A stretch of DNA of 50,800 nucleotides, taken from the sequence record NC_047820.1, one strand, 5' to 3'. Within the stretch, counting starts at the first letter, position 1; every line of letters begins with the position of its first letter. A model generated the notes under the pieces. The model ran no database searches. It was not told the origin of the DNA and worked only from the letters and a program-made list of their open reading frames with translations. This DNA comes from Escherichia phage vB_EcoS_ESCO41. Shown here piece after piece: positions 613 through 47,963 of the stretch. Made by a program: the position numbers and the translations under genes.

Positions 613-1149
613 ATGGATAAGGTGACATTGGGTGATGTGATTCGTGAGATGGTCCGCCAGGCGATTAAGTCCGACAAGAAGCTATGCGTCGTTCCGGTCC
701 GCAAGATATTCAACCTGGTCAACGGGTATGATTATCCGGATGAAATCATCGACGAGGTGACGGGGGGGATAACTAGTCCAGGTCGTGAAATCGCAGGCCT
801 GAAAAGTTCATACATCTATAACACCGCAGCAAGAATGCAGGAGCTTCGCGATATTGATATGCACGTCAAGCATCGCTTTATCTGGCTGGCGTCAGGCGAG
901 GAAACGGCAGCTCGCAAGGTTGATGGCGATGGCGCGGACAAGAACCTCCTGATCCAGCTTGAGCCAGGCGCTCTTAAGCCGACCAAGCGCAAGGCTGCCG
1001 ATATTGAGAAAGAGGTAGCCACCATTGAAAGGTTCAAGGCAAGACTACTCAAGATCACGCCGAACATTATAGACCTGCAAGGCGAACAAAAAGAAGGCGC
1101 GCTTATCGCCCTGGCTCGCTACCATGAAATGATTAAGGAGACTAACTGA
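613..1149 (+). CDS. hypothetical protein (178 aa)
   Basis: Long ORF downstream of promoter; no recognised motif. Confidence 0.55.
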   Translation: MDKVTLGDVIREMVRQAIKSDKKLCVVPVRKIFNLVNGYDYPDEIIDEVTGGITSPGREIAGLKSSYIYNTAARMQELRDIDMHVKHRFIWLASGEETAARKVDGDGADKNLLIQLEPGALKPTKRKAADIEKEVATIERFKARLLKITPNIIDLQGEQKEGALIALARYHEMIKETN

Positions 1150-1673
1150 TGTTTAATTTTGACGAAGACAAACTGACTGATGAGCAGATTATGAATATTG
1201 CTATCCAGGATGGGCTACCGCCACTGCGGGTTGCAATCAATGCTAACGGGTATCGGCATGTTCAGCACCTATGGGGTCAGCCTGATGCATCTGAAGTCTA
1301 CAGAGATGAAGCGCTGGGCGTTCTGATTAAGTTGATCAGGAAGATGGCAAGGAACGGCAAGGGAGTGGTGGGTGTCAAGTCTCTATACGAAGGCGCGCGC
1401 AAGGTTAAACCGTTCGTAGGATGCTTTGATATCATGTTGCGCATCAAGGGTGGGCTCCCCGCTCTAGAGGAAATGAATCTCACGTGCCTCATTGGAGATA
1501 AGATTTATGTCCACCCGGCTATCATTGATGAGTACTGGAAACCAAACTTCAAAACTTACGAAGGTGAGTATGCTAGTAGACTACCATACCACTTACGGTA
1601 CGGTGAGGATGAGGTGGAGGCGGCGATCGAGTTCTACCGGAAAGCTAAATCACTCCTGAATGGTGAATATTAA
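1149..1673 (+). CDS. hypothetical protein; internally deleted paralog of the 527-aa P-loop ATPase at 46380..47963 (N- and C-terminal segments only)
   Basis: MFNFDEDKL..LPPLRVAINANGYR and NGKGVVGVKSLYEGARKVKPF..TCLIGDKIY match both termini of the 527-aa protein; ATGA overlap with upstream gene. Confidence 0.6.
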   Translation: MFNFDEDKLTDEQIMNIAIQDGLPPLRVAINANGYRHVQHLWGQPDASEVYRDEALGVLIKLIRKMARNGKGVVGVKSLYEGARKVKPFVGCFDIMLRIKGGLPALEEMNLTCLIGDKIYVHPAIIDEYWKPNFKTYEGEYASRLPYHLRYGEDEVEAAIEFYRKAKSLLNGEY

Positions 1674-5906: not shown

Positions 5907-5946
5907 CACTTTTTGTTAAAACTCATAATCGGGGTGACTGTATAGT
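5904..5946 (+). promoter_or_regulatory. palindrome-promoter cassette: TAGCACTTTTTGTTA + 22 bp + TATAGT
   Basis: Palindrome 5904-5918; -10-like 5941-5946; leader CATCGAAACGAACGAGG 5952-5968. Confidence 0.6.
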
Positions 5947-5976
5947 TACCCCATCGAAACGAACGAGGAAGCAGAA

Positions 5977-15074: not shown

Positions 15075-15102
15075 TTGACCGTTTAACAAAAAATGCTATT
15101 AT
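15075..15102 (+). promoter_or_regulatory. sigma70-type promoter TTGACC-N16-TATTAT for the major capsid gene
   Basis: -35 15075-15080, -10 15097-15102. Confidence 0.55.
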
Positions 15103-25482: not shown

Positions 25483-25517
25483 GAAACATCTATAAATCGC
25501 ACTAAAGGCTAAACATC

Positions 25518-28500
25518 ATGATTAAAAATAGTGTAGTGACGGGCAGAAAGGGTGGAAGCAGTAAACCTCACACCCCACAAGAGATGGAAGATAACCTGAT
25601 CTCAATCAATAAGATTAAGGTTTTGCTCGCCGTTAGTGATGGTGAGGTTGACGCGAATTTCTCATTAAAGGACTTATATCTTAATGACGTACCTGTAATT
25701 GCACCCTCTGGAGAAGTTAACTATGAAGGCGTTAAGGCTGAATTTCGCCCAGGCACACAGACGCAGGACTACATCAAGGGATTTAACGACACGGCAGCTG
25801 AGTTCACCGTAGGTCGTGAATTGACGACTACGACTCCTTACGTGATCTCGGTAACGAATAAGCAGCTATCGGCCGTTCGCGTAAAAATCCTGATGCCTCG
25901 CGGCGTTACCACGAAAGAAAACGGCGATATGGTCGGCGTGGTCGTGAAGTGGGCCGTAGATATGGCGGTTGATGGAGGGAGCTACCAGGAAGTTTTGCTG
26001 GACACTATAGACGGGAAAACACTAAGCGGATATGACAAAACGAAGCGCATTGACTTGCCGTCGTTTAATAGCCAAGTCCTGCTTCGGGTTCGTCGTGTCA
26101 CTCCAGATTCTAATAATTCAAGAGTTGTTGACGCGATCAACATTCAGTCATATGCGGAAGTTATTGACGCTAAATTCCGTTATCCTCTGACTGGCCTTAT
26201 TTACGTTGAGTTTAACAGTGAGCTGTTCCCGCAGATCCCAAGCATTAGCACGAAAAAGAAATGGAAGATCATCAACGTTCCGAGCAACTACGACCCAGTG
26301 CTGAGAGAATACAGCGGCACATGGGATGGCAGTTTTAAAAAAGCGTGGTCAAATAACCCCGCTTGGGTGCTTTATGATTTGATTACCAATCAGAGATACG
26401 GGCTCGATCAACGTGAATTGGGGATCGCGGTCGATAAGTGGTCGCTCTATGACGCTGGGCAATACTGCGATCAGAAAGTTCCTGACGGTCACGGAGGGTT
26501 GGAGCCTCGCTACCTTTGCGATGTGGTGATCCAATCTCAGGTTGAAGCGTATAATCTGGTTCGAGATATTTGCTCAATCTTCCGAGGGATGAGCTTCTGG
26601 AACGGTGAGAGCCTTTCAATTGTCATCGACCGACCGAGAGAGGCTTCATACATTTTCACTAACGACAACGTCGTTGATGGCTCATTTGCCTACACGTTCG
26701 CGAGCGAAAAAAGCATGTACACAACTTGTAACGTCACGTTCGACGACGAGCAGAACATGTACAGCCAGGACATCGAGGGGGTATTCGACCTTAACGCTTC
26801 ATTACGATTCGGTCATAACCCAACGGCAATAACTGCAATCGGGTGTACTCGACGCAGTGAGGCTAACCGCCGAGGCCGCTGGGTTCTTAAAACAAACCTT
26901 CGAAGCACGACCGTGAGTTTTGCAACTGGCCTTGAGGGTATGATTCCGATGATTGGCGACGTAGTGGCTATCGCTGATAACTTTTGGTCAAGCAACCTGA
27001 CGCTTTCATTATCAGGTCGTGTCATGGAAGTATCTGGACTGCAAGTGTTCACTCACTTTAAAGTCGATGCTCGTGCTGGTGACTTTATTATCGTCAATAA
27101 GCCTGACGGTAATCCGGTTCGCCGTACTATTTCAAAGGTATCGGCAGACGGAAAGACGATTGAGCTTAATGTTGGTTTTGGTTTTGATGTTAAGCCCAAC
27201 ACTGTTTTCGCAATCGACAGAACTGACGTGGCTTTGCAGCAATACGTCGTAACTGGAATCACGAAGGGTGACGGTGATGATGAGTTCACATACAGCATCA
27301 CGGCGGTTGAGTATGATCCCAATAAATACGACGAGATCGACTACGGAGTAAATATTGATGACCGACCAACCAGTATTGTAGATCCTGACAACATGCAGCC
27401 ACCAAAAAACATTGTTGTTTCATCATACTCTCGAATCGTGCAGGGGATGAGCGTTGAGACAATGGTGGTAGGATGGGATAAAGTTCAGTACGCAAGCAAG
27501 TACGATGTGCAGTGGAGAAAGGATAACGGTAACTGGATGAACGTACCGCGTACAGCAAGCTCAGAGATTGAGGTTGAAGGGATTTATGCGGGTAATTATC
27601 ACGTACGCGTAAGGAGCATATCAAGCGGTGGAAACACGTCTCCATGGTCTGATGTTGTCAGCGTTGGGTTGACTGGTAAGATTGGGAAGCCAGATAAACC
27701 AACAGTCATAACCGCATCTGACGACCAGGTGTTTGGGATACGGGTTAAATGGGGATTTCCAGAAGGTTCTGGCGATACTGCATACACGGAGTTGCAGCAG
27801 ATACCAGATAATGGTGCTGGAGGTCACACTGGTGAGGAGAATGCGAGTCTATTAACAATGATTCCATACCCACAGTACGAGTACTGGCACTCGACACTGC
27901 CAGCAGGATATGTAAACTGGTACAGGGCAAGATTGGTAGACAGGATTGGTAACGCCTCTGACTGGTCTGACATTGTTCGCGGAATGGCAAGCGATGACGT
28001 TGAGTCCATCATTGGAGAAATAAAGGTTGATATCGAGAATTCCGATGGGTTTAAGTACCTACAGCAGAACGCCATTGAGTCAAACGGAGCTATTCAGGCG
28101 CAGGCGGAATCAATTCTTGAAAACGCACTTGCAAACGATACTGACGTGCGACGAATGACCAAGGAGAACGGCAAGAGAAAGGCTGAATACGTTCAGGCAG
28201 TGAATCTTATTGCCGATGAAACTCAGGCTCGCGTAGAGGCTCTCACGGCCCTTAAGGCGCAGATAGATGATGAAGTTGTAGCATCGATTACAGAAGTTCA
28301 GACTGCATTAGCCACAGAGACAGAAGCAAGGACTACAGCAGACACGGCTTTGAGCGCTCGACTTGGCGATACGCAGGCCTCGCTTAATGAAAAACTTGAC
28401 TCTTGGGTAGATGCGGAATCTGCTGGCGCTCAGTACGGCGTTAAGTTAGGACTCAAATACAATGGGGTTGAGTATAGCGCAGGGATGAGCATGGAACTTG

Positions 28501-30969: not shown

Positions 30970-31035
30970 TTTATCGCCAATTCCACCATAAATCACGGTT
31001 ACACGTAACCGATGTAACTCGATGTATACAATCTC

Positions 31036-33717: not shown

Positions 33718-36123
33718 TTAAATCAATCCATAAATAACATTGTGTAACGTAAGGGAGCCAATGGATGGTCCTACGTTAAAGTTTATCTCGGCTCTATATG
33801 CACCCTGAGGAACTGTTGATATAAGAGCGTAAAAAGAGAAGCTACCACCTTGCGGTATGTAGTAACCTACAGATTCCTCAACGGCATTACCAGAAATATC
33901 TAAAAATCTAATACTTGCTAATGCTGTTGTTGTGCTCATGGCCCAAAAGCCGAACTGGAAGTATCTACCCGGTTCGCAATCATAAGCATTAGTGGTAAAG
34001 TTAGCTGATGAGTTTAAGTCCGGTACATTCAAAAGGAATGACCTATCAAACTGAGCAGCTACACCTGTAGGCGCCTGCGAGACACTAGAGACAGCAACCG
34101 ATCCAGAAGAAGTTTGCGACAGTGACCAGTTGGAAGTATTCTGAAACTGGCCGCTGCCATTGCTTAGGCTGTTAATGTAAGGGCTAACAATTGATCCCTT
34201 GCTCCAATCACCAACAGGGAATCCAGCTCTCGGAAAGCACCCTCTCGCGATAACCTTTTTACTAGACCCGCCGACAACTTGCCTTGCTGGGAAACCAGAA
34301 GCAATTGTGGTACTTCCGTATAGGGGAAGCGAACAATTATTCAAGATTACAACGCCATCATCATTACTTACGATTGGAACAGACGTAAAACCATCTGGAA
34401 CAAGAATGGTGGTGTCTTTTATGCTTAATCTCGAACTTCCTGTGACCAGGAATGATACGAAGTTCTGACCTGGCTGATACTCTATATTTCCATTTGAGAA
34501 AACTACCGTCGCGTTATCGGACAGATTTACTGTGGGGTCAAAATAGCCACTCTTTTTACCTGCCGGTAATGAGCATGAATCAAAAATAAACTGACCATTC
34601 TCAAAGGTGATTGGTCCTCCGTTATCTACAATCCAGCAGTGATTAAACTTCATAACTTCACCAGAGTTAGCTCTCGACCTAAAAGTTATTGTCTCATTAA
34701 AACTCCTGCTTATTGCGCATTTATCAAAAAGAATCCTATATGAGTTGTCTAAGAACTCAATTCCACCAGTTGATATGATTCCGCAGTTCTCGATTCTTAA
34801 TTCGCCAGTCTCACCAGATGTTGCTCCACCTATACAGAACTTGCGGGCTCCAAGGCCAATAAATGAAACTCCAGATATCAATGATGTTGATGATATCGAG
34901 TCTCTATCAACATAATCAGTATTTGAGTTGAATATGTTGATGAAATATTCACCAACAGCACCGGGGGACTCTTTAATATTGCACTTGTTCTCGCCTATCA
35001 ATGAACCTTTTGATACGTCTATGTTTATCTGTGATTGCACAAGGCCATCTACAGGCACAACGCAGTCAAGGCCAGCCATGTTTACTGAGTTTATTGGCGC
35101 AGCTATATCACCATCACCAGTGTAACCAGCATCATATACTGTTGCTCTTCTACCGTTAAGTTTACGCCTCCATGTGACGCCGTCTCCTGCAAAAACAGTT
35201 ACATTATTAACCTGAAGTGATGCATCTGACGCGATAAGAGTACCGCCGCCTAGGTTGAATCCAGCCACATAAGACTCAAGCTCAATCGTAGTAATACCAA
35301 TCTCACCTGACAAACTAGATAACTCTGAAACTGATTTAACCTTACCGATTGAGCTTAAACCATCGTAATCAAACAAGTTTGAGTCATAAACCTTAACCCA
35401 TGAATCTACACCAACTCCACCCGTTGAATCTGGCGTAGAGCCTGCTGGAATCGTCTTTGGGAATGACCCAGTCCAGACATAAGACTTAACATCACTTCCA
35501 TTGATGTATAAAACCTGCTGATTTGTAGACTCTACCGTTCCTCCATCTGAGAAGTTTAAAGTTAATGTTCCAGACACAGAGTTTGCCGCTGCCTCTGCTC
35601 TATCGGCGGAAGATGATGCATTGGTGGCGTTAATTTGTGATGATGATGCATCACTTGAAACCTGTTCTGCAATCGTAACAATATCACCGTACTTCGTGTT
35701 TACCTGCTCTGCAATCGTAACAACATCACCGTGCTGCGTGTTTACCTGCGTTACCTTTGATTCAAAATCAGCATAGTCAAAATTGTTAAATGCATCAATA
35801 GCATCTGCAACTTCTGTTTCACGAGACTGATAGTAACGAAGTGTTTCTGCAACATCCTGAGCTAAGCCCTGAACGGTAATCCCATCGTGAGCAAGAATCG
35901 CGTAACCAGTTCCGGCAGGAACAGTTTCAGAATTAGGGTTATAAACATTAATATGCGTATCGCTGATAATTTCTGAGATAGTGTAAATCTGTACTGGTTC
36001 AGTTTTGAAAACAATGGTAGCACCAACGCGAATCAGTGTAAGCGGTGCTTTCCATGTCGTCCCGACGCCAGTAACCTCGCCATTTGCGGCTAGCGATGCT
36101 GTTCCTAAGTCATAAATTGCCAT
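33718..36123 (-). CDS. tail fibre / tailspike protein; start ATG 36123
   Basis: 801 aa; N-terminus MAIYDLGTASLAANGEVTGVGTTW is a phage-fibre-type anchor (recalled from memory); Gly/Asn/Ser-rich body; RBS AGGAG. Confidence 0.65.
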   Translation of the reverse strand: MAIYDLGTASLAANGEVTGVGTTWKAPLTLIRVGATIVFKTEPVQIYTISEIISDTHINVYNPNSETVPAGTGYAILAHDGITVQGLAQDVAETLRYYQSRETEVADAIDAFNNFDYADFESKVTQVNTQHGDVVTIAEQVNTKYGDIVTIAEQVSSDASSSQINATNASSSADRAEAAANSVSGTLTLNFSDGGTVESTNQQVLYINGSDVKSYVWTGSFPKTIPAGSTPDSTGGVGVDSWVKVYDSNLFDYDGLSSIGKVKSVSELSSLSGEIGITTIELESYVAGFNLGGGTLIASDASLQVNNVTVFAGDGVTWRRKLNGRRATVYDAGYTGDGDIAAPINSVNMAGLDCVVPVDGLVQSQINIDVSKGSLIGENKCNIKESPGAVGEYFINIFNSNTDYVDRDSISSTSLISGVSFIGLGARKFCIGGATSGETGELRIENCGIISTGGIEFLDNSYRILFDKCAISRSFNETITFRSRANSGEVMKFNHCWIVDNGGPITFENGQFIFDSCSLPAGKKSGYFDPTVNLSDNATVVFSNGNIEYQPGQNFVSFLVTGSSRLSIKDTTILVPDGFTSVPIVSNDDGVVILNNCSLPLYGSTTIASGFPARQVVGGSSKKVIARGCFPRAGFPVGDWSKGSIVSPYINSLSNGSGQFQNTSNWSLSQTSSGSVAVSSVSQAPTGVAAQFDRSFLLNVPDLNSSANFTTNAYDCEPGRYFQFGFWAMSTTTALASIRFLDISGNAVEESVGYYIPQGGSFSFYALISTVPQGAYRAEINFNVGPSIGSLTLHNVIYGLI
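35661..35744 (-). repeat. intragenic 42-bp tandem repeat (2 copies, 4 mismatches) in the tail-fibre gene, encoding VNTQHGDVVTIAEQ / VNTKYGDIVTIAEQ
   Basis: Direct comparison of 35661-35702 with 35703-35744. Confidence 0.7.
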
Positions 36124-36148
36124 AATAATCAACTCCTATATTGTTGTT

Positions 36149-36163
36149 TAGCACGAATTGCTA
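36149..36163. promoter_or_regulatory. isolated TAGCACGAATTGCTA palindrome 26 bp upstream of the tail-fibre start, with no -10 at the usual distance
   Basis: Direct reading. Confidence 0.4.
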
Positions 36164-36189
36164 AAGCGCATTGTATCATAACAAAGGAA

Positions 36190-36212
36190 TAAAAAAACCC
36201 GCCGTAGCGGGT
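36190..36212 (-). terminator. rho-independent terminator (minus strand) after the primase-like gene
   Basis: ACCCGC-tacg-GCGGGT followed by T7 on the minus strand. Confidence 0.65.
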
Positions 36213-36217
36213 AATTG

Positions 36218-37159
36218 TCATGAATACTTATCTATCAGATCCTGCGGCGTATATAGCTTTCGCTCAAGGCCCATCTTGAAGTTTCCACCGTTCGGCACGA
36301 CGACCTTCAAATCTCTCTCATCAGCCATGTAAAGCGTTCTCAAATCGTCAGCCGGACAAGCTACGCGCAACTCTCGATCTCCACGATAACGATAAGCAAC
36401 TATCTCAAGATTCTCAGGAGAGAAAGTAACCCAGACTTCCTGAATGGTCGCCATCTTCACACGATAACCATCAATCAGATCGCTTGTCATATATATAGCT
36501 GCATCAGCCTCGCCACTCCCCAGCTTAACCACTGAGCCGCGAGAATAATCACGCGCAAGGAAAGTGTATTCGCCATTATCATAAGCAAACATGACGTTAC
36601 ACATATCCTCATCAATTCCGTCATGGTGGACCATGTAGCACGGTAGTGCGTGTATTAGCTCCTCAGTGCCATTCTGACGCACTTTTACGCCAACATCATA
36701 CGAATCCTCAGTTAGGCACTCATACACGCTTAAATCGGTGCTCTCGCGCTTTTCTGTGCGTTCCATTACAGCTACACACGACTCATGATCCGCCATCTTG
36801 CCTAGGCCTTTCTCCGGTACGCGTGACGCCCTGCGGTAAGCTTTGGCTTTGTAATCCTGTGGCACTTTGCCAAGGAATCGACCGAGAATATTAATCACTT
36901 CACTGTAAGGCTCACCAGTCAGCTTCATCATCCAGCCAACACCGGAGTCGTTACCGCACTGATTACAGATTGCCCCACCGTCACCAGGGGAGTTAATGTT
37001 ATCAGTCCAGCGGAAGCGATCCGATCCTCCACAATACGGACAAGCCTGGTGCTTCTTATTAAAAACTCCAGACTGTAAGCCACATATCGACTGCAAGGCT
37101 TCTCGCCATAACCCCTTCATATATGGCAGAACTTCTTCTTTCCGATACATCTCATTCAC
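36218..37159 (-). CDS. primase-like zinc-binding protein (putative; GTG start)
   Basis: CPYCGGSDRFRW..CNQCG zinc-finger-like pairs near N-terminus; 313 aa; replication-module context. Confidence 0.45.
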   Translation of the reverse strand: MNEMYRKEEVLPYMKGLWREALQSICGLQSGVFNKKHQACPYCGGSDRFRWTDNINSPGDGGAICNQCGNDSGVGWMMKLTGEPYSEVINILGRFLGKVPQDYKAKAYRRASRVPEKGLGKMADHESCVAVMERTEKRESTDLSVYECLTEDSYDVGVKVRQNGTEELIHALPCYMVHHDGIDEDMCNVMFAYDNGEYTFLARDYSRGSVVKLGSGEADAAIYMTSDLIDGYRVKMATIQEVWVTFSPENLEIVAYRYRGDRELRVACPADDLRTLYMADERDLKVVVPNGGNFKMGLERKLYTPQDLIDKYS

Positions 37160-37174
37160 TTTGATTACTCCAAT

Positions 37175-37204
37175 AAAAAAGGTTGCACCAATTATGGCAC
37201 AACC
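37175..37204 (-). terminator. hairpin plus T-run (minus strand) that also carries the -10 of a degenerate cassette
   Basis: GGTTGCACC..GGCACAACC hairpin with plus-strand A6 (minus T6) tract. Confidence 0.45.
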
Positions 37205-37233
37205 TTAATTTTACTCTTTAGCTTTTCGTGCCA
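37191..37233 (-). promoter_or_regulatory. degenerate palindrome-promoter cassette (minus): TGGCACGAAAAGCTA + 22 bp + CATAAT
   Basis: Same spacing as canonical cassettes; -10 lies in the hairpin loop. Confidence 0.4.
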
Positions 37234-37234
37234 T

Positions 37235-37423
37235 CTAAACAACAAAGTGATGAGTCATTCTCCGCGACAAAAAAGACTCAAGATATCTTTCAATTACTTC
37301 CTTTTTACCAGTTTTTTTGTTGTAGGCGTATGGAGTTCCGCTGGTGTTGTCAACTTTACCAACAAATTTGTCGCCATCAACGTTAAAGATTGCTACGAAT
37401 TTACATTTAGGTAATTTGTTCAT
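37235..37423 (-). CDS. hypothetical protein (62 aa)
   Basis: ORF preceded by leader CACATCGAAAGCAGG and RBS. Confidence 0.45.
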   Translation of the reverse strand: MNKLPKCKFVAIFNVDGDKFVGKVDNTSGTPYAYNKKTGKKEVIERYLESFLSRRMTHHFVV

Positions 37424-37465
37424 TTTGTATATCCTCGTTTGGTTTGCCTGCTTTCGATGTGGTCA

Positions 37466-37508
37466 ATCATACCTCATCAATGAGAAATGTCTTTAGCTTT
37501 TCGTGCCG
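37466..37508 (-). promoter_or_regulatory. degenerate palindrome-promoter cassette embedded in the 3' end of the HTH gene: CGGCACGAAAAGCTA + 22 bp + TATGAT
   Basis: Plus 37494-37508 palindrome-like, -10 at plus 37466-37471, then leader and gene 37235..37423. Confidence 0.45.
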
Positions 37509-37959
37509 CATCGTTAGCGGCCTTAATCTTGCGCCATGAACGACACTCTGGCTTAGTGGCTAGTTCAGCCTCGGTGACGACGCGCAGCATGTGACGCTTT
37601 TTGCAACGCAGCGTTAGCGGCTTACCGTTCCCGTCGAATTGCAGATCCGGTCGGCAGAACGTAGCGCGGAATCCCTCTCCAGTTCGTTTGTATCGGTTAT
37701 GAGCCAGCTGAGCGCCACGGGCCGACATCATGCCGCGCTTAAACCATTCCTCAACGGCCTGGCGACTAACTTTCAGTTGCTTTGCGATATTTGCCTTCGT
37801 TCCGTAGAAGTCGAGAACCATTTCCAGTCGCGCCCGAAGCCCCGCCTTTACTTCATCTTTTAAAACGTAGTAACCTGAAGGTCGTTTTCGTTGCTTTTTG
37901 TCTTCAGTGCGGACTGTTCCGTTGTTACCGTTAATAGTTCGCTTGTCAACTGCTTTCAT
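37477..37959 (-). CDS. basic DNA-binding protein with helix-turn-helix (candidate transcription regulator)
   Basis: HTH-like TKANIAKQLKVSRQAVEEWFKRG; Lys/Arg-rich; divergent from the helicase gene with a palindrome in between. Confidence 0.5.
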   Translation of the reverse strand: MKAVDKRTINGNNGTVRTEDKKQRKRPSGYYVLKDEVKAGLRARLEMVLDFYGTKANIAKQLKVSRQAVEEWFKRGMMSARGAQLAHNRYKRTGEGFRATFCRPDLQFDGNGKPLTLRCKKRHMLRVVTEAELATKPECRSWRKIKAANDAARKAKDISH

Positions 37960-37972
37960 TTTATCACCTCAA

Positions 37973-38015
37973 TAGCATTTTTTGTTAAAAGTCATTACGA
38001 TTTGATGGTAGTATT
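37973..38015 (+). promoter_or_regulatory. palindrome-promoter cassette: TAGCATTTTTTGTTA + 21-22 bp + TAGTAT
   Basis: Palindrome 37973-37987 sits 14 bp upstream of the divergent HTH gene start and upstream of the helicase gene. Confidence 0.5.
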
Positions 38016-38060
38016 GTACCAAATTAAACGCTACAAGACAATTTTTATAGGAATTTAGAT

Positions 38061-39242
38061 ATGTTGCCTATCGAGAAGTTGGTTGCGAACTTCGATAAAG
38101 AAAGAATCAAACAAATTCAGAGAGATTATCAGTTTGGCGAGATAACCCCTTACGAATTCCAGTGCGTTACATTTGATGCAATTGGAAAGGCTATTGGGAA
38201 GTATGAGGCCCCATTTATAGCAGACCTTTCCGTTTCTGCGGGTAAGACAATTATTCTTGCCATGATTGGTAAGCGCATGGAGCAATTAGGGTTGCCTTAT
38301 ATGGTTCTTTCTCGCCAGTCAGAGATAATCAGCCAGAACTCAGAAGAGCTCCGTAATTTCGGTATCCGTAACAGCGTATATTGCGCTGGCCTTAACGTTA
38401 AATCAGTTTACTACCCAACCATAGTGGCTAGTGAGGGTACGGCAGCCAATGGCTTATTTAAGGGGCTTGGTGACTATGTTCCTGCGGTTATCGCTATAGA
38501 TGAATGTCACATGCTTGATACCATAGATATTGTGGAAGCCGAAGAGAATGAAGAAACATTTGAGCAAATGAGCACAAAGAAAGGCGAGATGGTTTTTAAG
38601 GATGGCGTTAATACTGGATTGCTTGGTACTGGTCGTGCGCAGTACACGCTAATAATCACTGAGATGAAGCGTCGCTGCCGTGAAAAATACGGGCGGGAGC
38701 TTCGTATATTCGGCCTTACTGGTAGCCCTTATCGAAACAATGACCATATCGTCGTTAGCAATCCAAACATCCGTGGGTTCTGGCGAAAAACTGTGATTCA
38801 GGTTCCAACAAATTACCTTGTTGATTTGGGATTCGTGGTTCCTACTGTTTATGGCGAGGTTGGCGATTTAGGTTATGACCTTAGCGAGTTTGAGCCTGAC
38901 GGAAGCGATGGTGTGAAAGATTTCAGCAAGAAAGAAATGGATGCGATGGCTGCAAAGATTCACGACAATCAGTCAATGACTCAAAAAATAATGGGGTTTG
39001 TTGTAAAAATACTAGAGACTCGTAACGCCGCGCTGGTTACATGCGCTGGCAAGTTGCACTGCAGTGAAGCGGCTGCCGCACTGCCTGATGGATACCCTTA
39101 CGCAATCATTACTGATTCTACTGGCGAGAAAAAACGACGTGAGATTCTATCTGATTGCCAGACAGGTAAGTACAAAATAATATTCCAAATTGGGTGTCTA
39201 ACTACGGGCGTTTCGGTCCCGCCCTTACGCAATCATTACTGA
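38061..39242 (+). CDS. SF2 helicase, N-terminal part (reading frame broken by 127-bp tandem duplication)
   Basis: Walker A SVSAGKTI, DEAD-box-like AIDECHM; ORF stops 21 nt into the second repeat copy. Confidence 0.65.
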   Translation: MLPIEKLVANFDKERIKQIQRDYQFGEITPYEFQCVTFDAIGKAIGKYEAPFIADLSVSAGKTIILAMIGKRMEQLGLPYMVLSRQSEIISQNSEELRNFGIRNSVYCAGLNVKSVYYPTIVASEGTAANGLFKGLGDYVPAVIAIDECHMLDTIDIVEAEENEETFEQMSTKKGEMVFKDGVNTGLLGTGRAQYTLIITEMKRRCREKYGRELRIFGLTGSPYRNNDHIVVSNPNIRGFWRKTVIQVPTNYLVDLGFVVPTVYGEVGDLGYDLSEFEPDGSDGVKDFSKKEMDAMAAKIHDNQSMTQKIMGFVVKILETRNAALVTCAGKLHCSEAAAALPDGYPYAIITDSTGEKKRREILSDCQTGKYKIIFQIGCLTTGVSVPPLRNHY

Positions 39243-39348
39243 TTCTACTGGCGAGAAAAAACGACGTGAGATTCTATCTGATTGCCAGACAGGTAAGTAC
39301 AAAATAATATTCCAAATTGGGTGTCTAACTACGGGCGTTTCGGTCCCG
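39095..39348 (+). repeat. perfect tandem duplication, 2 x 127 bp (39095-39221 and 39222-39348), inside the helicase gene
   Basis: Base-by-base comparison; 127 is not a multiple of 3; deleting one copy restores a single ORF 38061..40182. Confidence 0.85.
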
Positions 39349-39369
39349 CCGTGGGACACAAGCGTTGTA

Positions 39370-40182
39370 TTGAGAAAGATTGGTAGCTTAACTCTCATGA
39401 TTCAGCTTCTTGGGCGAGGCATGCGAATTCTAAAGAAAAAGCATATAGAAATGGGGATGAAAAAAGATGATCACCTTGTTCTAGACTTCGCCGGCGCACT
39501 TGACGATATGGCCGAACTTTACTTTGACCCAATCATTGAAGAAATTCAGGCTGAGAAGTTCAAGTCCTCAAGGAAAGGTGGTGATGAGGTCCGGCAGTGC
39601 CCGCAGTGTGGATATGAGAACTCACCATTTGCTCGACGCTGTAGCAACAAGATTGATGGAAAGCGCTGTGAGCACTTTTTCAGCTTTACGGTTTGTGAAG
39701 ATATTACTGACCCACAAACAAAGTCCGTCATCAAGAAAGGTTGCGGTACTCGCAACGACATAGCAGCAAAGGTTTGTCGTGAATGCGGAGAAATGCTTAA
39801 AGACCCTAATGCTAATCTAACCGGTAAGATGTATCGTCGTGGTGATTACCTCCGAGTTTATGATTTTCAAGTTGGTTTAAGTAAGAACCAGACTGGAATA
39901 GTTGTTAAATACAACATCATGGCGCATAACGGAGAGCGGTTTAATGCTTGGGAGTTCTTTAATCCAGAATCAGACCATCGAGTTTGCAGCGTGCTTTGGA
40001 AAAATTTCTGCCTATCCCATATTGAGAATCGCACAGAAGCAGCACGAATTGCTAAACTTCGCAGCGCAAAAATGATTATGATGAACGTAGATAAATTCCG
40101 TGCTCCTGTGCAGGTAACTCACAGAAAGAATGGCAAAGGAAAGGACATAATAGCTTTTAAGAATTTTGGAGAATTATTATGA
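39370..40182 (+). CDS. SF2 helicase, C-terminal part (motif VI plus Cys-rich zinc-finger-like region); possibly a pseudogene fragment
   Basis: QLLGRGMR helicase motif VI; CPQCG..RRCSNK..CEHF and CGTRND..CRECG; frame continuous with upstream ORF if one repeat copy is removed. Confidence 0.55.
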   Translation: MRKIGSLTLMIQLLGRGMRILKKKHIEMGMKKDDHLVLDFAGALDDMAELYFDPIIEEIQAEKFKSSRKGGDEVRQCPQCGYENSPFARRCSNKIDGKRCEHFFSFTVCEDITDPQTKSVIKKGCGTRNDIAAKVCRECGEMLKDPNANLTGKMYRRGDYLRVYDFQVGLSKNQTGIVVKYNIMAHNGERFNAWEFFNPESDHRVCSVLWKNFCLSHIENRTEAARIAKLRSAKMIMMNVDKFRAPVQVTHRKNGKGKDIIAFKNFGELL

Positions 40183-40655
40183 ATTGGAATGAGTGTTTTT
40201 ACTATGACAATGGCGTTTTGAGGTGGAAAATCCGCAGGGCTAATTGCGTTAAAATTGGTGACGAGGTCGGATTTAAACACGAGAGAGAGGGTTATAGGTT
40301 TTTCTGTAGGGACAGAAAACAATACTCTACACACAGAGTAATATGGGAAATGTTTTACGGACCAATACCGAAGGGCATGGAGATAGATCACATTAATCAC
40401 GTTAGGGATGACAATAGAATAGAAAACCTTAGACTTGTAAGTAAGCAATCAAATATGGAGAACAAATCGAAATACAAGAACAACAAAAGCGGATTTACTG
40501 GAGTGAGCTTCGAAAGTAAGTCTGGTCGGTGGTCTGTGAGTGTTGGGTCAAAAAGATACGGAAGATTCGATAACATCGAGCACGCAAAAATATGCGCAAT
40601 GATAGTTAGGGCTGAACTTGGATACCACGATAACCATGGGGATTATTTCCAGTGA
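40179..40655 (+). CDS. HNH homing endonuclease
   Basis: IDHINHVRDDNRIENLRL motif; paralog of 10187 and 12823 genes. Confidence 0.75.
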   Translation: MNWNECFYYDNGVLRWKIRRANCVKIGDEVGFKHEREGYRFFCRDRKQYSTHRVIWEMFYGPIPKGMEIDHINHVRDDNRIENLRLVSKQSNMENKSKYKNNKSGFTGVSFESKSGRWSVSVGSKRYGRFDNIEHAKICAMIVRAELGYHDNHGDYFQ

Positions 40656-41071: not shown

Positions 41072-41111
41072 CACGAATTGATAAAGACTAATCGGTGAGG
41101 TGGTGTATTAT
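41069..41111 (+). promoter_or_regulatory. palindrome-promoter cassette: TAGCACGAATTGATA + 22 bp + TATTAT
   Basis: Palindrome 41069-41083 overlaps stop; -10-like 41106-41111 in loop of GAGGTG..CACCTC hairpin; leader CATCGAAACGAAG. Confidence 0.55.
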
Positions 41112-41150
41112 CACCTCATCGAAACGAAGTAACCAACCAAGGAAATCAAA

Positions 41151-45864: not shown

Positions 45865-46057
45865 ATCCAAATCTTTGCACCAGCAGCAACAATTCACCTT
45901 CATTATTGCACAGTGTATGCTCATCACGACGTCCGGCACGCATGGATGAGTTAAGAATTGAAAGAAGGGCTTGATTAATCCCATCCTCACTGATGCCATT
46001 CTCAGAACTGCATCTGATTATCGCGTCGATTACAACCTGGCTTTCCGAATAACTCAT
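45863..46057 (-). CDS. hypothetical protein (64 aa); uncertain
   Basis: ORF overlapping the 3' end of the upstream gene by 56 nt; weak RBS. Confidence 0.3.
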   Translation of the reverse strand: MSYSESQVVIDAIIRCSSENGISEDGINQALLSILNSSMRAGRRDEHTLCNNEGELLLLVQRFG

Positions 46058-46376
46058 TATCGCTCATCTTCTCTATGTTCATCATCTCCCATGTATAGCT
46101 ATCGTTCTCACCGCCATAGCACCTGAAATGAAATTCAAATGGCCTTTTTTGCGCCCCTTTGGACCAGTACCAGTTGTTCACGCCGTCAAGGTATCCTTCG
46201 CCCATGCATCTTGCTATGAACTCCTTTGATGCTGATGATGCGAAGTAGCGAGGCGTAACTCCGGCAGCCTTCGCCAGTCGCTCGCACTCCCTATGCTTGT
46301 ATATGAATACCGCCAGGTGCTGACGATTGAACTTTTTATATCCTTCACAAAACCGGTACACGTCGAGCAGGAACAT
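46002..46376 (-). CDS. hypothetical protein (124 aa)
   Basis: ORF directly downstream of the ATPase gene on the minus strand. Confidence 0.45.
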   Translation of the reverse strand: MFLLDVYRFCEGYKKFNRQHLAVFIYKHRECERLAKAAGVTPRYFASSASKEFIARCMGEGYLDGVNNWYWSKGAQKRPFEFHFRCYGGENDSYTWEMMNIEKMSDNELFGKPGCNRRDNQMQF

Positions 46377-46379
46377 TGT

Positions 46380-47963
46380 TTACCCCAGCAATCTCGGATT
46401 AATGTAAATTTTATCACCAATCAGGCACGTATAGTTCTTCTCATCCAACATAGGGATTAGGTGATCCTTGATGCGAGTCATCACACCAGCTTGCCCTTCA
46501 AAGGGTTTGACCTTACGCGCAGCTTCATATAGGGATCGGACACCTACAACGCCTTTCCCGTTCTTGCCTTGCTTGATCAGTATGTCTATCAGCTTGTTCA
46601 TCTCCGCATGGTCGCCAGCGTGACCAGCGGCGTTGGCAGATGACAGATAAGTCTTACTCAGTTCCTGGAACATAATTACCGCTTCCTGCATTGTGTCAAG
46701 CTCAATCTCTCTGGACTTCTGCGGACTCCCGCCATTGGGATTAAACCAGTTACGCACAGTGTGAAGAACAGCCGCGATCCTGATAGCCTGCTTATCAAAC
46801 TTACCAAGCGCGCCGCGAAGCATTGTGTGTGAATACTTCCCGCCGTCCGCAAGGTGAGGCTCCATATCCTGACGCGCACGGTTGAGATATTTCATCGCCG
46901 ACGTGCTCACTGTCAGGTTTACTTCGTGTTCGCTCATGATCTCATGGACCAGACGGAAGTAGTCCGCCTTGAGTCCGCCATCAATCGGCTCATATGTTGA
47001 TTCGCCTTTCTCATCTACGAACACACGCTCACCAAGGAATGACTTCTCACGCACAAGCAGGAAACGCTCGGATACACCGATACCACGCGCGCCAGCGTTC
47101 ATGATCGCGTTTATCGTTTCATCCTGTGCAATTACAGAGATGCAACCCATCGCAATAAAGCTCATGTTATTGTCTGCGTTCGCACGGGCGATAGATACGT
47201 TACCAGCATCCCACGCCTTAAGCACAAGCTCGCTGTTCGTTTTCTTTGAGCCGTCACCATAGGTCATGCCTAACAGTGAGTTCACGCTCGTTGCTTCATC
47301 CGAGATAACTGCAAAGTTGCCCTGGCGGTTGTTGATTCGCGCAAGACCTTCCGGCGTGGTGTCGGATACGGGGAAAACGATGTCACAGAGTCGTTCAAGT
47401 TTTTCTTCAAGCTCCTCTTTCTCCTCAAACAGAGCCGCCATATCAGATGGTGATTTTTCCTGCTTCATCTCCTTGGATAGAGCGGAGAGCTTAGCCATAA
47501 TCTTCTTGCGGTCACGCTTTCGGATCTCGTTGAGTCGCTCAGTCTCTGCGATCATTGGGGCCAGAGAAAGTGAGTTGATGGCTGATTTACCTGTCGATGG
47601 CGGCTGACTGGTTACGACGTAAAGAGCGGTCGGCTGTTGTGTTCCGTGATACTCAACCGTAAATCGGCCCAGCATGGCGGCTGATATGCATCCGAGGAAA
47701 TGCATGTAAGCGGACGACTCTGGGAACTGAACAGAACGAGCGGCATTGCTTGACAGTTTACCAACGACATCATAATCGTTACCAAGTGAGATAACCGGAT
47801 ATTTGTCACCGCCTGAGTCAATCTCTGTTGGGGCTTTCCAGAACGACTGGCTTTGCCTGTATCCGTTCGCATTGATGGCAACGCGCAGAGGCGGGAGGTT
47901 ATCGGCGGCGGCGACAGCCATGACCTGATCGATTGACAATTTATCTTCGTTGAAATCAAACAT
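46380..47963 (-). CDS. P-loop NTPase, putative replication ATPase/helicase (SF3-like)
   Basis: Walker A SQPPSTGKSA, Walker B FAVISDEA; 527 aa; termini homologous to the 174-aa protein at 1149..1673. Confidence 0.55.
   Translation of the reverse strand: MFDFNEDKLSIDQVMAVAAADNLPPLRVAINANGYRQSQSFWKAPTEIDSGGDKYPVISLGNDYDVVGKLSSNAARSVQFPESSAYMHFLGCISAAMLGRFTVEYHGTQQPTALYVVTSQPPSTGKSAINSLSLAPMIAETERLNEIRKRDRKKIMAKLSALSKEMKQEKSPSDMAALFEEKEELEEKLERLCDIVFPVSDTTPEGLARINNRQGNFAVISDEATSVNSLLGMTYGDGSKKTNSELVLKAWDAGNVSIARANADNNMSFIAMGCISVIAQDETINAIMNAGARGIGVSERFLLVREKSFLGERVFVDEKGESTYEPIDGGLKADYFRLVHEIMSEHEVNLTVSTSAMKYLNRARQDMEPHLADGGKYSHTMLRGALGKFDKQAIRIAAVLHTVRNWFNPNGGSPQKSREIELDTMQEAVIMFQELSKTYLSSANAAGHAGDHAEMNKLIDILIKQGKNGKGVVGVRSLYEAARKVKPFEGQAGVMTRIKDHLIPMLDEKNYTCLIGDKIYINPRLLG

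Follow-up and report, generated by a model that had tools for sequence, protein, structure and literature searches.

In the genome of Escherichia phage vB_EcoS_ESCO41 (sequence record NC_047820.1), we analysed a gene for a 160-amino-acid basic helix-turn-helix (HTH) protein together with a short repeated element upstream of it. The 50.8 kb analysed, in the following called the window, are essentially the whole genome of a T1-like siphovirus (Drexlerviridae). The element belongs to a family-wide 21-nt direct repeat (DR) and, judged from its sequence context, makes up the 5′ half of a promoter cassette of ~60 nt, which further comprises a weak −35 region, a −10 hexamer, a CA start and a leader. 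The locus itself is, by its predicted signals, a single-gene regulator transcription unit with a host-type promoter, placed between two cassette promoters. We tentatively suggest, as the best explanation overall, that the HTH protein, which has a predicted Cro fold, may be the DR-binding factor in a self-limiting switch between the regulator and a divergent helicase gene.

An earlier note on this region described a palindrome 14 bp upstream of the HTH gene. Such an element is present at 37973..37987 on the plus strand, but its arms TAGCA and TGTTA pair at only four of five positions, making it an imperfect palindrome, and it lies 13 nt rather than 14 nt from the ATG. It is the core (TAGCATTTTTTGTTA, T-type, pointing to the helicase, with one mismatch to the family pattern) of the published T1-like repeat. 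In phage TLS, this 21-nt direct repeat, aaATAGCACnnnTTGnTAAAA, was found in 21 copies (18 of them listed as intergenic), oriented with transcription and located ~76 nt before start codons, and it also occurs in T1, Rtp and Rogue1 (PMC11447400). Its function was an open question in the 2024 re-annotation of TLS, with stoperators, enhancer sites and UP elements as suggestions (PMC11447400). Positions 37971-37991 of the window, AATAGCATTTTTTGTTAAAAG, differ from the consensus by a single mismatch (C6 to T), a variant shared by TLS DR7 and DR18. As in TLS, this copy is intergenic and has the orientation of the gene that follows; its first position, 37973, lies 88 nt 5′ of the helicase ATG (38061).

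We distinguished a G-type (TAGCACGAATTGCTA) and a T-type (TAGCACTTTTTGTTA) of the core. The copy at 37973-37987 shows five differences to the canonical 15-mer TAGCACGAATTGCTA and one mismatch to the pattern TAGCAC-N3-TTG-N-TA. Allowing up to three mismatches, the canonical 15-mer was found 18 times in the window compared to 1.5 expected occurrences; the pattern, with at most one mismatch, was found 19 times compared to 0.92 expected, a number reached in none of 100 shuffles. Exact matches to TAGCA-N5-TGCTA number 10 each in the window, T1 and Rogue1, nine in CJ19 and seven in the Klebsiella phage GH-K3. Vibrio phage Vc1 carries the motif too, as do three metagenomic relatives (38-42% identical).

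For the cassette consensus we aligned 95 DR copies taken from the window and loci L001-L008, nine genomes or loci in total. The consensus reads AA, TAGCAC, KWW, TTGYTA and AA in succession, with the two conserved blocks ~11 bp apart, fitting two adjacent major grooves. A −10 hexamer (TAtaaT) starts 22 nt past the DR in 72 of the 95 sites and within 21-24 nt in all of them, and a G occupies position −14 in 79. A CA dinucleotide follows 7 nt past the hexamer, and then comes ATCGAAACGAA, the conserved leader; transcription is predicted to start at the A of CATCGAAACGAA. All but two cassettes, which carry ATGACA or ATGACC, have a poor hexamer (AAACCx) at the proper −35 position, and some assistance at these promoters is therefore expected. 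With 22 nt between its end and the −10, the DR would span about −49 to −35 relative to the inferred starts, with its centre at −42. A site centred near −42 (−41.5) is the classical position of a class-II activator, and the DR appears to occupy it.

Other readings of the DR were rejected. A sigma54 promoter (TGGCAC-N5-TTGCW) does not fit, as TAGCAC-N3-TTGC gives AG-N8-GC instead of GG-N10-GC and is thus 2 nt short, the G2 is an A in 94 of 95 copies, and a sigma70-type −10 lies at a fixed distance. TTGYTA is no true −35 element, with a spacer of 22 nt and no −10 at 17 nt. Nor does the DR match the usual description of a UP element, an A/T-rich stretch from −60 to −40 with no particular G/C demands: G3, C4, C6 and G12 vary little or not at all, and only the three to five central bases and the flanks are A/T-rich.

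Standard cassettes are confined to the non-structural arms of the genome, none being located between 5.9 and 30.2 kb of the window, and they drive small genes at both genome ends. In 11 window cassettes the preceding gene uses the TAG of the DR as its stop codon (plus strand: 1886, 2183, 3025, 3913, 5904, 32466, 41069 and 42383; minus strand: 30211, 48039 and 48677), and at these sites gene end, DR, hairpin and next promoter fit in ~60 nt. The hairpins arise from the 36 nt between DR and start, which are variable in sequence and in most cassettes form highly stable structures (mean stability z-score −2.9 compared to −0.08 for random windows; examples at 2198-2233, 5919-5954 and 41084-41119). 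The −10 often sits in the loop or the 3′ arm, and T-runs follow only in some. Possible roles are those of a terminator, an RNA 3′ stabiliser or a DNA cruciform.

The palindrome had also been assigned to the divergent helicase promoter, and this assignment agrees with the orientation of the DR, which points to the helicase and not to the HTH gene. It spans −48 to −34 (centre −41) of the predicted helicase promoter, whose −10, TAGTAT at 38009..38014 on the plus strand, aligns with TATTAT of the relatives and whose predicted start is an A at ~38021, preceded by C. On the minus strand, a sigma70-type promoter for the HTH gene lies at 38013..38041 (TTGTCT, a 17-nt spacer and TACAAT, with TG 5′ of the −10), with its predicted start at ~38006. 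The regulator is among the few genes with a host-type sigma70 promoter instead of a cassette. Its −10 (38018-38013) and that of the helicase overlap by 2 bp, and the helicase DR is therefore located at +20 to +34 of the regulator's predicted transcript, 2 nt from the ribosome-binding site (RBS). An equivalent leftward promoter exists in eight of the nine genomes, its TATAAT being the reverse complement of the helicase TATTATA.

In every relative examined the DR lies in the regulator's own leader, so that regulator expression would be influenced by whatever protein binds at this site. No RNA structure was detected in this leader (z = +0.56), and Rfam returned no family match. The autoregulatory arrangement proposed in the earlier note holds in this respect, as the candidate operator overlaps the gene's own signals (DR at +20 to +34 and overlapping −10 hexamers) in eight of nine genomes.

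The open reading frame (ORF) of the HTH protein, 37477..37959 on the minus strand, is as previously described, with 160 codons, an ATG start and a strongly basic product (pI 10.44; 39 K + R versus 17 D + E). Its RBS, GAGGTG at 37965..37970 on the same strand, falls within a CACCTCA column block conserved in the relatives. The protein is a homolog of the TLS gp57 "transcriptional regulator" and matched the phrog_2856 profile almost completely (E=1.6e-83; amino acids 1-157 on profile positions 8-165 of 165). This family is small, with 30 representative clusters, and is found only in T1-like genomes at constant synteny, while tblastn with the HTH protein yielded 823 phage records, the closest relative belonging to phage CJ19 of the genus Nouzillyvirus. 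The regulator is a core gene, located between the primase and the divergent SNF2-type helicase in the window, T1, Rogue1, CJ19, GH-K3, Vc1 and the loci L006, L007 and L008.

Three parts can be recognized in the protein, an N-terminal arm (amino acids 1-30, modelled with low confidence), an all-alpha Cro-like core (amino acids ~35-102) and a C-terminal extension. The core has the five helices of the Cro fold; a profile search against PDB sequences gave E=0.023, and in NCBIfam only the HTH-like domain "carph-isopro" appeared, below threshold. The arm, DKRxxNGNNGTRRGxDKKxRK, is the best conserved part (72% pairwise identity), followed by the segment GFRAxFCRPDLxFDxNGK (65%). Conserved residues outside the arm include R44, R75 and R103. 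A DNA-level constraint behind the conservation of the arm was ruled out; because synonymous sites vary across the nine genomes, the constraint lies at the protein level.

Binding of the DR by the Cro-fold protein is suggested by its DNA-binding fold, its strongly basic character, its host-type promoter and the DR in its own leader, as well as by the co-occurrence of regulator gene and DR across the family and by the spacing of the two conserved DR blocks, which amounts to one helical turn. From these features, the Cro-fold protein is the single most likely reader of the DR, at a probability that we place clearly below even. In the proposed mechanism, the host polymerase would first transcribe the regulator leftward from ~38006, with the divergent region open to RNA polymerase in one direction or the other but not in both at once. 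A dimeric protein on the DR would then, from the class-II position, bring polymerase to the rightward helicase promoter, and the same bound protein would obstruct leftward transcription of the regulator, yielding a self-limiting switch. Given the overlapping −10 hexamers and the DR in the leader, this recruitment would lower regulator synthesis.

A number of observations weigh against this assignment. Cassettes border almost all of the non-structural transcription units; since such flanking is the rule here, the proximity on which the earlier note had relied is nothing special and lends the HTH protein little weight as a candidate. The cassettes at the genome ends probably have to be active at a time when no phage protein has yet been made. 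From the E. coli phages to Vibrio phage Vc1 and the relatives with 38-42% identity, the DR does not vary, and a co-variation test over these found no relative with an altered DR and no positive co-variation, an outcome that counts against recognition by helix 3. No part of the protein is less conserved than this predicted recognition helix (amino acids 65-74; mean pairwise identity 24% versus 46% overall), and acidic, neutral or hydrophobic residues occupy the usual base-contact positions of the helix. The DR is asymmetric in the 95 copies, with C6 and T10 both invariant and both flanks A-rich; position 3 is G in 100%, and at position 13 C accounts for 62% and T for 34%. In Pfam, the protein missed the gathering threshold for PF14549 (P22_Cro; 22.4 versus 30.2 bits) and also for YdaS_toxin (17.6 versus 30). 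We found no transcript mapping or binding data in the searchable literature. Furthermore, a second candidate, a winged-helix protein, is present family-wide (TLS gp70, called "HTH domain-containing protein") and has a conserved recognition helix (60% versus 54% overall; K51, E52, F53 and R56 are invariant).

The HTH protein as the palindrome-binding factor, the central proposal of the earlier note, is only partly supported, by its host-type promoter and its co-occurrence with the DR, and is weakened by the variable recognition helix and the rival winged-helix protein. If the Cro-fold protein binds at all, it probably does so via the invariant basic N-terminal arm and other conserved residues, not via a conventional recognition helix.

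The invariance of the DR across Escherichia, Klebsiella and Vibrio phages would also fit a highly conserved reader such as RNA polymerase, all the more as family members are recorded from Pseudomonas and other hosts as well. The DR could then be read by host machinery, by the alpha C-terminal domain of RNA polymerase and/or sigma70 on a UP-like or extended element, or by a conserved host factor. The cassettes would be constitutive strong promoters, and the Cro-fold protein would have another role; it might bind a phage-specific site or aid replication initiation together with the primase and helicase. We consider this rather unlikely, while giving it serious weight. UP elements are among the suggestions of the TLS authors (PMC11447400). 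The A/T-rich centre of the DR at about −44 to −40 has the position of a proximal UP subsite, and genes presumed to be the first expressed, at both ends of the genome, have cassettes in front of them. The HTH protein, for its part, has a variable recognition helix and is encoded between primase and helicase. However, UP elements are A/T-rich and lack the invariant GCAC and G12 of the DR, the TTGYTA block, 22 nt from the −10, is too far away for a −35 role, and hexamers correctly spaced for a −35 are poor. We also know of no host factor with the DR consensus.

Another phage protein might bind the DR instead, which we regard as unlikely. The prime alternative is the winged-helix protein mentioned above, a TLS gp70 homolog of 124 amino acids encoded at 46002..46376 on the minus strand, adjoining and co-transcribed with a DUF3987 ATPase/helicase gene. 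Its conserved recognition helix is set against several points: this neighbour and a conserved acidic tail (SDEELF) would better fit an origin-binding or helicase-adaptor role, Pfam gave no match for it, its family, phrog_2794, has no assigned function, and it has no special relationship to any DR.

Outside of the standard cassettes, DRs also occur at late genes, in operator-like positions that are conserved across genera. A reversed DR at 15084-15098 lies inside the spacer of the strong capsid promoter (TTGACC-16-TATTAT with TG), with counterparts in T1 (15071), CJ19 (25388) and Vc1 (5715). Another one, at 36149-36163, is located just 5′ of the side tail-fibre RBS, in the tail-fibre leader, and is also found in relatives. 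A degenerate copy at 25497-25511 abuts the ATG of a 1126-amino-acid tail protein, 3′ of TTGCGC-17-TATAAT, as does one in T1 (25022). Placed in this way, the same reader could repress late genes.

These sites allow a broader proposal, which we consider improbable, that one Cro-fold protein acts via the DR as the master timer of all Drexlerviridae, with titration by replicating genomes. The DR would then be read mainly by the invariant N-terminal arm and not by the hypervariable helix 3. About 20 early and middle promoters would be activated from −42, while the regulator's own promoter and the late capsid and tail-fibre promoters, with the DR in spacer or leader, would be repressed. Replicating genomes with ~25 sites each would titrate the self-limited protein and release the late genes. 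If true, this would answer the question about the DRs raised by the TLS authors.

DRs in operator-like positions, in the capsid promoter spacer, the tail-fibre leader and the regulator's own leader, would likewise be compatible with a Cro-fold protein that binds DRs as a repressor or "stoperator" roadblock, shutting off and insulating early and middle units. The oriented intergenic DRs resemble the stoperators of mycobacteriophage L5, as remarked by the TLS authors (PMC11447400), and the G at −14 may leave the cassettes partly independent of an activator. Yet a DR at −42 beside a weak −35 is typical of activation, phages of the T1-like group are virulent and the window contains no lysogeny module, and the objection from the recognition helix applies equally; we therefore judge this alternative to be still less probable. 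That the palindrome acts in RNA, by folding into a small hairpin in leaders or at the 3′ ends of upstream transcripts, would suit the TAG stop codons of the 11 window cassettes, the C or T at position 13 that forms a G-C or G-U pair with the invariant G and the strong, variable hairpins after the DR, but is very improbable given a stem of only 5 bp, an unstructured regulator leader without Rfam match and the fixed 22-nt spacing to the −10 and CA start, which ties the DR to promoter geometry.

Returning to the regulator unit with its two flanking cassettes, the second one overlaps the 3′ end of the HTH gene, where a degenerate cassette driving the next gene had previously been noticed. This agrees with our results, as DR, −10, leader, RBS and the ATG of a 62-amino-acid ORF follow each other. 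The degenerate DR, CGGCACGAAAAGCTA (37494..37508, minus strand; four mismatches), is located in the last HTH codons, where it is read in frame and encodes AARKAK. The remainder of the cassette (37449..37493, minus strand) comprises the −35-like AAGACA (37493-37488), a 16-nt spacer, the −10 TATGAT (37471-37466) and the leader CATCGAAAGCA (37459-37449), with transcription predicted to start at ~37458; a small hairpin, CTCATtgATGAG, includes the TGA stop of the HTH gene. RBS and ATG of the basic 62-amino-acid ORF (37235..37423, minus strand) come after CATCGAAAGCA. The DR core (37508-37494) lies 85 nt before this ATG (37423), but inside a coding sequence.

The 62-amino-acid ORF is absent from the five reference genomes compared (CJ19, Rogue1, T1 and GH-K3 among those named). 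An 18-nt perfect direct repeat, TCTTTAGCTTTTCGTGCC, occurs at 37215..37232 and again at 37490-37507; both copies overlap DR cores and bracket a 275-bp insert with the ORF and the duplicated cassette. The primase promoter cassette follows at 37179..37233 on the minus strand, with the DR TGGCACGAAAAGCTA (37233-37219) and a 12-bp terminator-like hairpin with a T-run (37206-37179), in whose loop the −10 CATAAT (37196-37191) is found; its transcript is predicted to begin downstream of 37191. From this arrangement, the 3′-end cassette is the putative ancestral primase promoter of the regulator module, and the ORF has the appearance of a small gene that entered through recombination at the DR. Compared to CJ19, DNA identity is 91% over exactly 37490-37989, from DR to DR, while the flanking primase and helicase share 45-52% protein identity and are unrelated at the DNA level. 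Because the CJ19 identity ends and the 18-nt repeats fall on DRs, the DRs appear to act as recombination junctions, with which the boundaries of mosaic modules coincide.

The region 36100-40300 is 85-88% identical to the E. coli phages BEK3, XT34 and vB_EcoS_FP. On the minus strand, the genes for tail fibre, primase (zinc-ribbon type, 36218..37159, downstream of the regulator module), the 62-amino-acid ORF and the HTH protein precede the plus-strand SNF2-type helicase gene (38061..40182), followed by an HNH endonuclease, a VRR-NUC protein and a Dam methylase. A perfect 127-bp tandem duplication (39095-39221 = 39222-39348) causes a frameshift in the helicase gene, which is thereby split in two ORFs, 38061..39242 and 39370..40182. 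In silico removal of one copy restores a single ORF of 664 amino acids, a length near that of the relatives; the duplication could be an assembly artefact, or real and inactivating or adaptive. Repeat searches for iterons or an origin near the HTH gene gave only this duplication and DR-related repeats.

Within the helicase coding region, at 40040-40054 on the plus strand and ~125 nt before the HNH endonuclease gene, there is a near-perfect DR, CAGCACGAATTGCTA. Including its flank, 16 bases are identical to 36150-36165; no −10 is present at the standard distance, and in frame it reads AAR-x-AK, like the copy at the 3′ end of the HTH gene. In the divergent control region 5′ of the recombination genes (30995-31035), we noticed the palindrome GGTTAC-AC-GTAACC and, beside TACAAT, the direct repeat GATGTA-ACTC-GATGTA; the same string is found in Rogue1 (L002, about 26515-26560), and these elements may represent a different operator system. 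The DUF3987 helicase of 527 amino acids (46380-47963, minus strand) matches phrog_7327 with its last ~90 residues (amino acids 439-526), and a 174-amino-acid early-region ORF (1149-1673, plus strand) matches this family over its full length. The C-terminal domain of the helicase thus recurs within a separate early-region protein.

Previous records cover the DR as well as the gene family with its putative-regulator annotation, and the window contributes one further member, with a local insertion. In the searchable literature, the DRs are described by the TLS paper only, and no connection to the regulator is made. The same literature does not contain the promoter geometry of the DR, the overlapping bidirectional promoter pair or an explicit shortlist of candidate readers. 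T1-like phages are among the commonest coliphages and notorious contaminants in laboratories and fermentations, and our results bear on how they programme transcription without a polymerase or sigma factor of their own. With a defined promoter geometry, a predicted start, a predicted bidirectional switch and two candidate binders, the DR question has become testable. If confirmed, a link between regulator and DR would provide a compact, portable activator-promoter pair and would explain why module boundaries fall on DRs in mosaic genomes.

The closest known system is that of TLS. It shares with the window the DR motif with its three centre types (TTT, GAA and AAA/TAA) oriented with transcription, the order primase, regulator and helicase, and a regulator gene that is separated from its sigma70 promoter by a DR. 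In TLS, this promoter is P57, one of only three curated sigma70-type promoters, which drives gp57, with DR11 between them; gp57 is followed by DR10 and the terminator T57, the same arrangement as the primase-cassette DR and terminator-like hairpin of the window. The DR was not linked to a −10, a start site or gp57 in the TLS paper (PMC11447400). Unlike TLS, the window module contains the additional 275-bp insert with the 62-amino-acid ORF, derived from a duplication of the DR region.

Among all-alpha Cro proteins, Xfaso 1 Cro (3BD1), N15 Cro (2HIN/6ON0) and P22 Cro (1RZS; Pfam PF14549) served as comparators. These have ~60-70 amino acids compared to 160 in the HTH protein, which differs further by its invariant 30-residue basic N-terminal arm and its C-terminal extension, by a recognition helix that is hypervariable within the family, and by its origin from a virulent phage.

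Lambda cI at OR2 activates PRM from a site centred at −42, and Mu Mor acts at Pm on a dyad at −43.5. With respect to the predicted starts, the cassettes resemble these targets in having a pseudo-palindromic site near −42, a poor −35, a good −10 and a divergent competing pair. Apart from the general HTH fold, no sequence homology to cI or Mor was detected. In contrast to both systems, there are ~20 such promoters per genome here, the two −10 hexamers physically overlap, and the binder is a candidate only. The stoperators of L5 share with the DRs the many copies of a short oriented site in short intergenic regions; they are, however, asymmetric 13-mers bound by a lysogeny repressor, whereas the DRs stand in a fixed register with the −10 and the start site.

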